From a virus: a stretch of 64,000 bases of DNA. This document shows positions 26,486-44,947 of the stretch, one piece after another. A program made the position numbers and the translations under genes. Position 1 is the stretch's first letter; every line of letters starts with the position of its first letter. The stretch is from IMG/VR virus record IMGVR_UViG_3300020205_002848, positions 1-64,000 of that record. One strand, given 5' to 3'. The notes below the pieces were generated by a model. It ran no database searches and was not told where the DNA came from. It saw only the letters and a list, made by a program, of their open reading frames with translations.

Positions 26486-26953
26486 ATGATAACTAAAATA
26501 TCCATATTAGGTAAAGAAAATTCTAAAAAAACTAGGTTAACTAAAGATTTAGCATGTTATTATAATACTAATTTTGTATTGGATTATAAATATCTTATTT
26601 TTGGGAGTTTTGAAAAAACTCCAGAATGTGAGGATTACCTTAAAATTTCCAATGATAGACTATCATTGGAAAATTGGCTTTTAAAGAGTTCCAATAAGAT
26701 ACTATTTTCAGATACTGATGACTTTAGTTTATATTTAGATGTTTCAAAAAAATTCCCAAAAAATAAAAAAGTAAAAGAGGAAATTCTATCAAGAGTTTTA
26801 AATAAAAAGTTTGATTATTATTTTCTAATAAATCCTACCGATGAAATAATTTCAGAAGCTAATAAATTAAAACTAAATATCGAAATATTTAAGGGAGAGT
26901 ATGATGAAATTAAAAATAAATGTATATCATTTATAAATAAGTCTATAAATTAA
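26486..26953 (+). CDS. NadR/AAA_28-like kinase domain with a degenerate P-loop
   Basis: KISILGKENSKKTRLTKDLA versus NadR-type ILGxESSGKSTL..LA; ILFSDTD. Confidence 0.55.
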   Translation: MITKISILGKENSKKTRLTKDLACYYNTNFVLDYKYLIFGSFEKTPECEDYLKISNDRLSLENWLLKSSNKILFSDTDDFSLYLDVSKKFPKNKKVKEEILSRVLNKKFDYYFLINPTDEIISEANKLKLNIEIFKGEYDEIKNKCISFINKSIN

Positions 26954-28046
26954 ATTTTTCTAAAAATTCTGATTCAATTAGATAACCTTTGGTAGAATTA
27001 ATATATCTCTTAGTTATACATAAATTCTCTATAGATCCAATCGTTATTGGATCTATAGAGAATTTAAATCCATAATACACAGATACTTTATGATCAATAG
27101 TTGGGAAAAATCTATGAGTGTGACTTTTTGATAAGTATCCTTTTATAAATTCATCATCGTAATAATCAACGCCATTCCATTTTTCATATAAAAACTTCTT
27201 GTTAGAGTTGGTAATTCTTCTAACCAACTTTTTATACTTATACCAATCACTCGTTTCGGAATCAGATATAATGGTTCCGTTAGATTCTTTAGTATATTTT
27301 ATTTTTCGTTGTATATCACCAACTTTACTAACATTATCAACTCCATATCTTTCTAGACAAGTTTCTCTACACTTTTTAATAGTTTCTGATAATTTTGATT
27401 TAAAAATGGATTTCCAATAGTCAGTCTTTGATAAATATTCATTACCATATCTTTCTAAAAATGTTATTTTTATCTTTTCAATAGTTTGTATAATTTTAGA
27501 ATCAATTGTCTTCTTAAATTGGTCAGTCTTTGAGTATGAATCAACTCCATATTTTTCCAACATAGTTTTTTTAGATTTGTCTTTAAACTCATCAGATGAC
27601 ATCCACTTTCTATTCATCTCTCTACTTTCATCAGTTTTGAAATAAGAGTCAACTCCATATTTTTCCAACATAGTTTTTTTACCCTTTTCAGAACCCTTTT
27701 GAATACCTTTCCATTTAATACTCTCTGTCAATTTAAACTCATCAGTCATTGAATATGACTTAACGCCCCATTTTTCTAAACATGTTTTCTCCTTTACATG
27801 ATTTTTACACATAAAGCAAGAATAATATCCTTTGTCACTTCTGTTTTTATTAACTAAATATTTCGAATAGGGTATATGGTTTTCGGAACTACATATTTCA
27901 CAAATAGCTGTTATTTTATTCTTTGTACCCACTGGTAAGTCATTAACATTGACGAAAATCTCATTAGATATTGTATATCCTAAATTTAAATAGTAAGATC
28001 TATTTCTCAAATTAACTTTAACCAAAACTTTATCCTCCTTAATCAT
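26943..28046 (-). mobile_element. Free-standing HNH-type homing endonuclease with repeated KKT(M/C)LE(K/R)YGV motifs
   Basis: N-terminal CEIC/CFMC zinc site, five LE(K/R)(Y/W)G repeats, C-terminal TIDHKVS...NLCIT..INSTKG; divergent from polB across a 77-bp gap. Confidence 0.75.
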
Positions 28047-28123
28047 ATAAACTATATACTTTTTATTATATATAAAATTATATAAGTCCCATTAGAGACA
28101 AATTTTAAAAAAAAACATAAAAA

Positions 28124-29589
28124 ATGACAAGAGAAGAAAAAATATTCAAGATCGAGTCTTTAAAAAAACAAGCGAGCGAGCTAAAGAAGGAAGCGGATTA
28201 CTACAACGCACTTCAGCTCGCTCTTGTTTAGCCCCCGGTATTTATTATCGGGGGCAAAAGAGACTAAAATTAGTTCTAAATGGAAGTTACGGCGCATTCG
28301 CTACATCCTACTTTATATTATATAATAACCACGTAGCTGGTACAATTACTGCACAAGGCAGGGACCTTACACAAACAATGGACAGGGTCAATGAAGACTA
28401 TTGGTATAACCAGTGGCACAACGACCATGAACTTCATTTTAAATTAGGTATTAAAGATGTAAGTGAAATATCTAAAAGTGAACCAGTTTCTATATATGCT
28501 GATACTGATTCATTATTCGTTTCTTTCAAACCAGCAATTGACCATTGTAATTGGAAAGATTTAATATTCAATAAAGAATATTTAGATTCGATTGATGAGA
28601 AGTTTATCATATTAACAAATGATGAGACAAAAACAAATAATCCTAATTGTTTAGGAATCGCATCTAACTTAGATGATTTATCTGAATTAATAAAAAATGA
28701 TTATAAAGTTTTATTATTCGATGGTAACTTTATTAAAGACAGAGGGTTGAATAAGATGATAAAAAATGGAGTATTCACATCTAGTATTGGGTGGAATTGG
28801 CCAAGTGAGCAAGACTTTATACAGGGTGTTGATCATTTTAGATTTGGTGGATACTTTAAAAAATGTTTAGAAGATTACGCATCATCTTTTGGTGTTGAAA
28901 ATAAAGAAGATTTTGAATTAGAAAGAATATCTGAATCGATTATCAATCTTGCTAAAAAGAAATATATTTGTCACATAACATATGAAGATGGCATCCCATT
29001 TGATAGACTGACTTATCTTTATCCAAAAGGTGTTGAGCTTGTTAGATCGTCTACTCCGGCATTTGCTAGAGATAAGATTGTTGGTATTGTTAAGTATCTA
29101 TTTACACACCCAGATACCTTTAATATAAAAGATTTATTAAAATTAGTTAAGGGTTTAAGGAAAGAGTTTGAGTTAGCTGATATTGATGATATCGCAATGC
29201 AGTCTTCTTGTTCTAATTATGATATTAAGGTTCTAAATGATAAATCATTACCTCTTCAATTTGTATCAGGTGCTCACTTTGCGGTTAAATCAGCAGCTCA
29301 CTATAACTATCTTTTATCAAAGAGTAAAGACCATCAACAAAAGTATGAGTTTATTAAATCAGGGACTAAGATTAAATACTTTGTATGTAAAGATAAATCG
29401 GTAACTGATATGTTTGCTTATATTAGAGGTTCTTATCCACATGAATTTGCACCACCTATTGATTATGATACACAGTTTTCCAAATCTATTTTATCACCGG
29501 TGAATTCTATTATAGAGCCATTGGGAATGCCAGAGATTACTAAAAGGTTATCAGTTGTAATGGATATATTTAGCGGTTTTTCGAAATAG
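28124..29589 (+). CDS. polB: Family-B DNA polymerase, C-terminal half (gp43B-like), interrupted by a 41-nt insert; join(28124..28225,28267..29589), about 474 aa
   Basis: ATG 28124 gives MTREEK...YYNALQLAL; after the insert comes KLVLNGSYGAF (motif B), then ITAQGR, IYADTDS (motif C), KKKY and KGVELVRSSTP. The ORF track start at 28378 lacks motif B. Confidence 0.88.
28226..28266 (+). other. 41-nt stop-containing hairpin insert (candidate ribosomal bypass gap or mini-intron)
   Basis: GTT TAG, then a GCCCCCGGTA-TTTAT-TATCGGGGGC stem; removing it restores Q-x3-K-x3-N-x2-YG. Confidence 0.8.
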
Positions 29590-32707: not shown

Positions 32708-32784
32708 AGTGATTAATTAATTTTTATAAATTATATATAAAATTAGGAAAAGAACTTTTGTCAATATATACAACGATATTATAT

Positions 32785-33258
32785 ATGAAATTGATAAAAA
32801 CACTAAAATTTCTTTTAATTTCTGAGCATCAACACTTTTTATCAGTAGATGTTACGACTTATAAAAGATGGAAAATACTAATAAAACTGGTTATAAATCT
32901 AAATAAGAACTACAAAACTTGTGAAATATATAGAAAGAAATTCAAATACTTAGAAGACTTTGTAGTTGTTGGACTTAGATATAACGGGAAAAATGTTAGA
33001 AGAAGAACATCTGGATTCGCTAAAGAATTTGTAGAACAACATAAAGACTCTAAATGTATTTACTGTGACATTTCTTTAACACCTGAAAATGCAACAGCTG
33101 ACCACATAATTCCGATTTCATCTGGTGGAAATAATTCCCAGGTTAATTTGATTGTGTGTTGTAAAGATTGTAATGCTGAAAGAGGAAATTTAGAATTTAG
33201 TTCATACTTAGTTCAGAAAAATAAAAATCACAAAACATCAAGAAATTTATTTATTTGA
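32785..33258 (+). CDS. HNH endonuclease
   Basis: CIYC...ATADHIIPISSGGNNSQVNLIVCCKDCNAERG. Confidence 0.88.
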   Translation: MKLIKTLKFLLISEHQHFLSVDVTTYKRWKILIKLVINLNKNYKTCEIYRKKFKYLEDFVVVGLRYNGKNVRRRTSGFAKEFVEQHKDSKCIYCDISLTPENATADHIIPISSGGNNSQVNLIVCCKDCNAERGNLEFSSYLVQKNKNHKTSRNLFI

Positions 33259-44604: not shown

Positions 44605-44947
44605 ATGGCTAAAATAATAGACAAAAGAAAAATAATCAGAGAAGAAGGGGCGACTAAAGTTTTAGTCGCCTCTTACTGAGGACGGTACATTATCCACAGG
44701 AGTATCGATAAATGCTATTTTTAATGTAATATTCGCTGATTCTTTTAAATCGGAGCAAATTATTATACAATCAATTGGTAGAGCACTTCGTTTACACTCT
44801 GATAAAAAGAAAGCAAATATCTTTGATTTGGTTGATATTTTTAATTCCAATAATATGAATAATATATTATTTAGACACTTTAAAGAAAGAGAAAAATTTT
44901 ACACAAAAAGACAATATCCTTACAAAATAATCAAAGTTAATCTTTGA
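44605..44947 (+). CDS. uvsW: UvsW helicase C-terminal part interrupted by a 7-nt insert; join(44605..44676,44684..44947), about 111 aa
   Basis: MAKIIDKRKIIREEGATKVLVASY, TGA, then in the +1 frame GTLSTGVSI (motif V), QSIGRALR (motif VI) and IFDLVD...RHFKEREKFY; not in the ORF track. Confidence 0.85.

Follow-up and report, generated by a model that had tools for sequence, protein, structure and literature searches.

We analyzed a 64,000-nt stretch of viral DNA (positions 1 to 64,000 of IMG/VR record IMGVR_UViG_3300020205_002848; hereafter the window), part of a 78.5-kb record whose source is called a huge freshwater phage. In this window, the gene for the C-terminal piece of a split family B DNA polymerase (polB-C) is interrupted within motif B by a 41-nt coding gap, and a divergently transcribed endonuclease gene lies just upstream (Table 1). 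Comparison with related loci leads us to propose, as a probable reading, that the two form a mobile cassette in which a free-standing homing endonuclease gene is paired with a translational-bypass gap in the adjoining essential gene. A first-pass annotation of this DNA had suggested such a cassette by analogy with mobA and gene 60 of bacteriophage T4, and the suggestion has gained support from block differences between near-identical phages, from a link between endonuclease lineage and insertion site, and from the exchange of one endonuclease class for another.

The frame that opens at ATG 28124 reads MTREEK...EADYYNALQLALV and ends with ...YYNALQLALV at the TAG of the gap. Its first segment is collinear with the insert-less alleles (PHROG DNA polymerase profile positions about 457–839), and the second segment is matched by family B polymerases (Pfam DNA_pol_B; PHROG 262, E = 7e-46). 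Motifs B and C share one frame, which differs from that of ATG 28124 and offers no ATG, GTG, or TTG before 28378, a position already past motif B. The helix preceding motif B (QLAL) is joined to motif B only when 41 nt are skipped. Scans of IMG/VR and of metagenomes yielded 112 related polB-C loci, many of which read ...YYNALQLALKLVLNGSYGAF... unbroken; the gap is absent from at least 27 dereplicated relatives, where motif B is continuous and the uninterrupted reading is ...QLALKLVLNGSYG. Deleting 28226–28266 from the window yields exactly the sequence of these insert-less relatives, which fixes the length of the insert at 41 nt, as first annotated, and shows that it interrupts motif B by both a stop codon and a change of frame.

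Homologous inserts occur in dozens of independent assemblies and in metatranscriptome contigs, so the insert is not an assembly artefact, and its presence in the polymerase gene is confirmed. We catalogued 41 distinct gaps of 36–48 nt among the relatives, located at six codons of motif B (take-off positions Ala33, Leu34, Val37, Gly40, Ser41, and Tyr42), all of which fall within 27 nt of polB's most conserved sequence. Interrupted alleles are common and diverse, and the sequence downstream of the gap is conserved under purifying selection. Reassignment of a stop codon was considered as an explanation and rejected, because the gaps use TAA, TAG, and TGA and most of them change the frame. Polymerase genes of huge phages can look truncated or frameshifted in annotations without being so.

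The insert is strongly associated with the endonuclease gene. Dereplication at 98.5% polB-C identity left 70 alleles, 59 of which have an upstream region long enough to be scored, with 11 of unknown state. Both elements are present in 24 of the scored alleles and neither in 27, with the insert alone in 6 and the endonuclease alone in 2 (odds ratio 54, Fisher p = 7.5e-9). Co-occurrence across related genomes was the test named in advance by the first-pass annotation as able to refute its proposal, and the outcome is strongly positive. On the polB-C tree the state of the insert changes at least 16 times. Of 12 pairs that are phylogenetically independent, about 8.8 have endonuclease and insert going the same way and 0.1 have them going opposite ways (sign test, median p = 0.004).

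Pairs of closely related alleles reveal the extent of the exchanged DNA. Because the nearest insert-less relative of the window is just 75–85% identical to it, block borders were defined on other pairs. Between a filled and an empty allele (L015 and L012), about 870 nt with the endonuclease gene are inserted in the intergenic region, and identity is 80–87% from the ATG to the insert and 97–100% just past it. In a second pair (L009 and L008), the polymerase downstream is virtually identical, while the 5′ segments differ and the inserts lie at different codons. In every pair examined, the exchanged block has its right-hand border at the insert, which fits homing, since such a border is expected with a break at or next to the insert. 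As comparison of the alleles shows, the endonuclease gene, the intergenic region, the first about 100–125 nt of polB-C, and the 36–48-nt insert are gained, lost, or exchanged as one block between huge phages that are otherwise near-identical. Moreover, the clade of long, window-like endonucleases is linked to take-off codons 33, 34, and 37, and the clade of short ones to codons 40, 41, and 42. In L034 and L103/L104, a GIY-YIG/NUMOD3 endonuclease takes the place of the HNH gene at the same spot and on the same strand, and the insert is kept. Endonuclease and insert very probably constitute a co-mobile cassette.

In the mechanism we propose, the endonuclease (HNH here, GIY-YIG in some relatives) would cut or nick insert-less polB-C within the motif B region, and in a mixed infection repair from the cassette-bearing genome would copy the block. 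The insert would break the recognition site and leave its carrier protected. It is rather likely that the insert acts as immunity in this way, the block borders at the insert and the correlation of endonuclease lineage with site being indirect evidence. Alternatively, endonuclease and insert could be independent neighbours, the former targeting an intergenic site of its own and the latter being a regulatory attenuator of polymerase synthesis or a selfish bypass element that hitch-hikes by linkage. This would accommodate the insert-only and endonuclease-only alleles, as well as an interruption in the uvsW gene of the window (44605–44700) that has a similar 5′ helix and no endonuclease beside it. 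The distribution of the endonuclease family is also compatible with it: among 80 IMG/VR loci carrying the family, 21 adjoin polB-C and 59 adjoin other genes and lack such a hairpin. We nevertheless consider independence unlikely, given that the right border of the exchanged block is the insert, that the endonuclease lineage predicts the position of the insert in motif B, that inserts occur at six codons within 27 nt and nowhere else in genomes of 180–465 kb, and that a GIY-YIG gene can replace the HNH gene while the insert stays.

The 41 gaps share an architecture that can be read in terms of a ribosome leaving one codon and landing on another. Their lengths fall into all three classes modulo 3 (15, 17, and 9 gaps). 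In 34 of 41 gaps the landing triplet agrees with the take-off codon at its first two bases, compared with 5 of 295 other triplets of the 3′ spacers used as a control, and in 32 the two are synonymous (CTT and CTA in the window). At the third base, a T at take-off is replaced at landing by A in four-codon boxes (CTT/CTA, GTT/GTA, GCT/GCA, TCT/TCA) and by C for Tyr, a pattern that may reflect weaker pairing at take-off and Watson-Crick pairing at landing by a transfer RNA (tRNA) with U34 or G34. A stop lies within two codons of take-off in 32 gaps (as the first codon in 4 and as the second in 28); in the other 9 it comes later. The hairpin begins 5–6 nt past the take-off codon, the distance from that codon to the C-run being exactly 6 nt in 33 gaps, and the G-run ends 5–9 nt ahead of the landing triplet in 39. 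A covarying C5/G5 hairpin is the consensus structure of 40 inserts, with compensatory changes in 5 of 8 pairs; in addition, the last base of the stop pairs and covaries with the base that follows the G-run (TAG...C, TAA...T).

A second structure lies upstream of the gap. The region 28160–28275, comprising the 5′ helix and the hairpin, folds at −47.4 kcal/mol (z = −7.25). Within the 9-bp core of the 5′ helix, 7–9 of 9 pairs are kept in the codon 33/34 alleles, with compensatory changes, compared with a mean of 4.5 in insert-less alleles. In each class the 3′ arm of the helix ends at that class's own take-off codon, so that the position of the helix shifts with the take-off site. The mean longest helix is 9.7–14 bp in the alleles concerned versus 5.5–6.6 bp at the same positions in insert-less ones, a difference whose naive p of 3e-20 overstates the support, as the sequences are related. 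The 5′ helix is formed by GC-rich synonymous codons, which explains the local rise in GC content to 0.41 (28150–28449) against 0.20–0.31 in the surroundings; the higher GC content of the polB 5′ segment had been noted at first reading and is borne out. The window also contains a weak 5-bp AU-rich stem (GACUA/UAGUU, 28262–28275) that includes the landing triplet and could be either a counterpart of the “forward slippage barrier” of gene 60 or a product of chance.

Several other readings of the hairpin and of the matched triplets were tried and rejected. The CCCCC..GGGGG element is single-copy in the window, and such a hairpin occurs once per genome in the records examined (180–465 kb), which speaks against a dispersed repeat, a miniature inverted-repeat transposable element, or a GC cluster. 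As for a terminator, no T-run follows the hairpin, and scanning revealed no terminator-like site. The repeated dinucleotide could also be read as a target-site duplication; since the match is in codon phase and the third base is free to change, tRNA pairing fits it better.

We consider it quite probable that the gap is skipped by ribosomal bypassing. In the window, peptidyl-tRNA-Leu would leave the take-off codon CUU (28223–25) when the GC-rich hairpin, at its constant distance of 6 nt, hinders decoding of the next codons, the second of which is UAG. In E. coli, a hairpin 11–12 nt from the P-site codon stops tRNA from binding in the A site at any codon (eLife 2020;9:e55799). This would offer an explanation for the arbitrary codon found here between take-off and stop, albeit with a different spacing (stem base at +9/+10). 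Refolding of the 5′ helix behind the ribosome may push it forward, the tRNA would re-pair with CUA 9 nt past the G-run, and translation would resume at AAA to give ...NALQLAL-KLVLNGSYG, with the junction peptide EADYYNALQLALK.

The two frames of the window could instead be joined by a −1 programmed frameshift at A_AAA_AAA (28162–28168), the product then reading through the hairpin as a non-homologous 33-residue linker. This slippery sequence has a very stable stem 5 nt downstream, at canonical spacing, and the downstream frame is open from 28096. The frameshift product, however, would lose DYYNALQLAL of the motif B helix, which is conserved in the ATG frame of all alleles with synonymous variation. 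A closely related element (L021, 95–98% identical, 40-nt gap) argues further against it: a 1-nt indel reverses the frame relation there, so that the opposite shift would be needed, and the frame overlap of 44 nt falls short of the A-run. A hop would be unaffected by that indel, whereas a frameshift would be abolished. Furthermore, no frameshift can join the frames in 25 of the 41 gaps, 10 having no frame overlap and 15 being in frame with a stop inside. We regard a frameshift as extremely unlikely.

The polymerase could also be made in three pieces, with a 35-residue peptide ending at the TAG and the remainder produced by reinitiation or from a non-canonical start; a variant is that interrupted alleles are defective and complemented. 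The polymerase is, after all, already split into N- and C-terminal halves that lie more than 100 kb apart, and an in-frame TTG, GTG, or ATG is found inside 17 of the 41 gaps. The other 24, that of the window included, contain no start, and the frame of the window has none ahead of 28378. A matched landing triplet and a 5′ helix would be left without a role, and defective alleles would be hard to reconcile with the frequency, diversity, and downstream purifying selection of the interrupted alleles. We judge this possibility very unlikely. Taken over the whole set of gaps, frameshifting, readthrough, and reinitiation cannot account for it as general mechanisms.

Removal of the gap from the messenger RNA is a different kind of alternative, under which translation would be ordinary and the logic of the cassette would still hold. 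The gap would be a hairpin-defined mini-intron, cut out and religated by phage or host enzymes. It is compact and structured, with a constant 5′ geometry; the flanking helix of the window brings its ends together; and RNA repair enzymes are encoded by huge phages. On the other hand, the gap is kept in RNA-library contigs from three studies. One contig (X19) spans the whole gap of a relative with both flanks, and another (X16) matches window 28109–28249 exactly, reaching only 24 nt into the gap, which is below our 31-letter rule for bridging. The joined, gap-less form was not seen among these contigs, which cannot exclude a minor spliced form. The 3′ boundary of the gap, moreover, lies 8–17 nt from the hairpin and is marked solely by a triplet synonymous with the take-off codon. 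Splicing is disfavoured because the marking of the landing site, the wobble pattern, and the in-frame stops matter to a ribosome and not to a nuclease or a ligase. We know of no bacterial or phage system that splices 40-nt inserts, and no report of such splicing was found in the literature searched; this explanation is quite unlikely. The endonuclease gene is essentially uncovered by RNA contigs, which are thus uninformative on its expression.

Some observations weigh against bypassing or against the cassette. The landing triplet does not encode Tyr in 9 of the 17 Tyr42 gaps (AAC, AAT, GAC, TAA, AGC, AAA), of which seven could still pair with tRNA-Tyr at two positions. The stop is usually the second codon after take-off, as opposed to the first in gene 60, and the hairpin starts 6 nt past the take-off codon, as opposed to containing it; the window has its take-off codon in the 3′ arm of the upstream helix and not in the 5′ arm of the take-off stem-loop. 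No Shine-Dalgarno sequence precedes the endonuclease start or the polB-C start, which makes a Shine-Dalgarno-like role of the G-run doubtful, and the host probably does not use such sequences. Metatranscriptome contigs may contain DNA, and a minor spliced form would be compatible with them. The slippery A_AAA_AAA with its well-placed stem belongs here as well, as do the six alleles with an insert and no endonuclease and the two (L087 and L095) with an endonuclease and no insert.

We give an even chance to a broader proposition: that the gaps represent a second, independently evolved family of modular bypass signals. Each module would comprise a helix that ends at take-off, then a 6-nt spacer, then a C5/G5 hairpin, and finally a matching triplet 5–9 nt past the G-run; it would function at no fewer than six codons, with several tRNAs, and be spread as an immunity device by at least two classes of homing endonuclease.

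The uvsW gene (window 44605–44700) is a second interrupted replication gene. Its C-terminal piece runs ...KVLVASY, TAC, TGA, and motifs V and VI resume after a GAC 7 nt further on. A 13-bp helix ends exactly at the TAC, so that, as in polB-C, the 5′ helix abuts the take-off codon. The polB gap of L031 has the same TAC/GAC pair. There is no endonuclease gene next to the uvsW interruption. If the broader proposition is true, the similar uvsW signal would mean that these phages regularly use hopping to express their genes.

Table 1. Coordinates of the polB-C locus and its endonuclease gene in the window.
Feature	Position	Strand	Description
Free-standing homing endonuclease gene, 367 aa	26943..28046	-	N-terminal Cys-rich part, DUF7487 “EKYGVxSYxKT” repeats, C-terminal HNH domain
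Predicted HNH (beta-beta-alpha-metal) nuclease domain, residues 262–367	26946..27263	-	AlphaFold and Foldseek
Divergent intergenic region, 77 nt	28047..28123	.	Between endonuclease start and polB-C start
polB-C coding segment 1	28124..28225	+	34 codons, MTREEK...YYNALQLAL; final codon is take-off CTT (28223–28225)
5′ long-range helix	28166..28229	+	Arms 28166–28182 / 28215–28229, inner pairs 28186–28214; take-off codon in 3′ arm
41-nt coding gap	28226..28266	+	GTT, TAG stop (28229–31), hairpin, spacer CAAAAGAGA, landing triplet CTA (28264–66)
Take-off hairpin GCCCCCGGUA/UAUCGGGGGC	28231..28255	+	10 bp, GC-rich, 5-nt loop; G of the stop codon pairs with C28255
polB-C coding segment 2	28267..29589	+	Motif B KLVLNGSYG (28267–28293), motif C YADTDS (28495–28512), thumb

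From the endonuclease start codon (28046) it is 77 nt to the polB-C ATG and 180 nt to the insert. The spacings and the HNH-type assignment of the first-pass annotation both hold, the latter by predicted fold. The protein matches Pfam DUF7487 (E = 3e-17) and PHROG “homing endonuclease” families, while no Pfam HNH family matches it at E ≤ 1 and a profile search of PDB sequences found nothing. Its C-terminal 106 residues carry an invariant DH...NLC...INS pattern, with D318-H319, N341, and N350 invariant in 13–28 homologues. This domain is predicted to fold as an HNH nuclease: modeled in isolation (AlphaFold pLDDT 93.9), its top Foldseek matches in the PDB are almost all HNH nucleases, albeit with weak E values (0.015 and above). 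The best is 4h9d, the Gme HNH nicking endonuclease (probability 0.99, E = 0.015), and the HNH domains of GeoCas9 and NmeCas9 are also matched. The full-length model (pTM 0.34) gave no meaningful Foldseek match.

The family comprises 1135 homologues, all unnamed. In 24 dereplicated relatives the gene occupies the same position beside polB-C; among relatives its start lies 9–91 nt upstream of the polB-C ATG, always on the opposite strand. A tblastn search against 50,697 phage records found no T4-type Mob gene at E ≤ 1e-3, and only the DUF7487 repeats are shared, with an open reading frame (ORF) of the T4-like Acinetobacter phage KARL-1, where it splits nrdA. Two further genes near polB-C deserve mention. 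A second, canonical HNH endonuclease (Pfam HNH and HNH_5; window 32758–33258, plus strand) lies about 3 kb downstream of polB-C; it has 48–70% identity in relatives with and without the insert and, being conserved irrespective of it, is placed outside the cassette. A family of Cys-rich ORFs (MKxCNxCLxEKExxxFPKKG...) found 1–3 kb upstream of polB-C, whether or not the allele has the insert (L111:2052–2798, L023:1580–2455, L032:1938–2684, L077:1646–2470), may represent a further mobile endonuclease.

The nearest named relatives of the record are uncultured “huge phages” of 630–740 kb (LR745206, LR756502). The N-terminal half of the polymerase (polB-N) was searched for in the 78.5-kb record and not found. 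Complete relatives encode it at a distance of more than 100 kb from polB-C; in L039–L046 (LR745206, LR756502, and two IMG/VR contigs of 436 and 465 kb) it is about 500 aa long, and the two halves lie on opposite strands in 3 of 4 records examined. Because insert-less and endonuclease-less relatives are split as well, the split must be older than the cassette and was not caused by the endonuclease. Besides the motif B gap, a large in-frame, intein-like insertion is present at motif C, ending ...VHN followed by S, in L024, L028, L033, L114–L116, L124, and L126; the window has no such insertion. Upstream of polB-C, a small conserved inverted repeat (GTYC...TTTAGRAC type; window 28083–28100), 25–45 nt from the ATG, recurs in L021, L006, L030, L111, and L118 whether or not the endonuclease is present, and may be a promoter or operator element. 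A phage-encoded IF-3 (Pfam IF3_N and IF3_C) stands immediately upstream of polB-C in many relatives (L009:5272–5790, L012:5341–5874, and the equivalent place in L005, L011, L013–L015, L077, and L079) and is not there in the window. No tRNA genes were found in the window.

Four known systems invite comparison. Programmed −1 frameshift signals such as that of dnaX likewise place a stable hairpin at a fixed short distance 3′ of the recoding codon, with an arbitrary intervening codon; they differ in that most alleles here have no frame overlap and 36–48 nt are skipped. Free-standing phage endonucleases are known from collaborative and intronless homing, as with SegF and MobE of T4 and the cyanophage F-CphI with its psbA intron. 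There, too, the endonuclease lies beside its target gene, a sequence difference or insertion confers protection, and the flanks are co-converted. The protecting insertion in polB-C would be of another kind, a stop-containing gap skipped in translation and neither an intron nor a set of silent substitutions. The byps in mitochondria of the yeast Magnusiomyces capitatus (27–55 nt), for which efficient bypassing has been inferred (bioRxiv 10.1101/2022.08.31.505936), are similar in size and are also short, GC-rich hairpin inserts in essential genes of an AT-rich genome. They number 81 per genome, however, and spread as GC-cluster mini-elements, whereas the polB insert occurs once per genome, in motif B, and is linked to an endonuclease.

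The closest parallel is the mobA/gene 60 cassette of T4. In both, a replication enzyme is split, its C-terminal piece is initiated separately, and an HNH-type free-standing endonuclease gene adjoins that piece; the enzyme is a topoisomerase with a 50-nt bypass gap at codon 46 in the one case and a polymerase with a gap of about 40–50 nt, 33–42 codons into the piece, in the other. Bypassing in gene 60 uses matched codons, a stop, a take-off hairpin, and a 5′ stem-loop, and replacement of HNH by GIY-YIG has been reported among its cassettes (bioRxiv 10.1101/2022.08.31.505936). The polB-C locus has the same set, with matched take-off and landing triplets, a stop near take-off, a gap that opens with a stable hairpin, and a 5′ helix preceding it; the GIY-YIG replacement and the orphan gaps left after endonuclease loss have their counterparts as well.

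The two systems also differ. The interrupted gene encodes a family B polymerase, at motif B; the endonuclease is of the DUF7487 plus HNH type and divergently transcribed; six alternative codons carry the gap, compared with one (±1) in gene 60; and the ends of the C5/G5 stem are invariant. The 5′ helix, which is not conserved among gene 60 clades, is conserved here and tracks the take-off position. The gene split predates the cassette, and the present system is known from sequence alone. The gap sequence is unrelated to that of gene 60, and no homology to MobA was detected. The independent origin suggested by the first-pass annotation is thus plausible, the lack of any T4-type Mob match and a gap architecture unlike that of gene 60 now being added to the case for it.

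To our knowledge, T4 gene 60 has for more than 30 years been the sole phage case of efficient long-range ribosomal bypassing. A 2022 survey added further cases only as gene 60 homologues in the topoisomerase gene (bioRxiv 10.1101/2022.08.31.505936), and the literature searched yielded no account of a polymerase gene with a bypass gap. The 41 natural variants, with six take-off codons, several tRNAs, and two endonuclease classes, constitute a comparative set in which the requirements for a hop (spacing, hairpin, 5′ helix, and the pairing rules at landing) can be addressed. The polB-C case appears to work like the T4 mobA/gene 60 cassette while being non-homologous and not a member of it by descent, which would make the combination of an endonuclease and a bypass gap a recurrent evolutionary solution and not a one-off accident.

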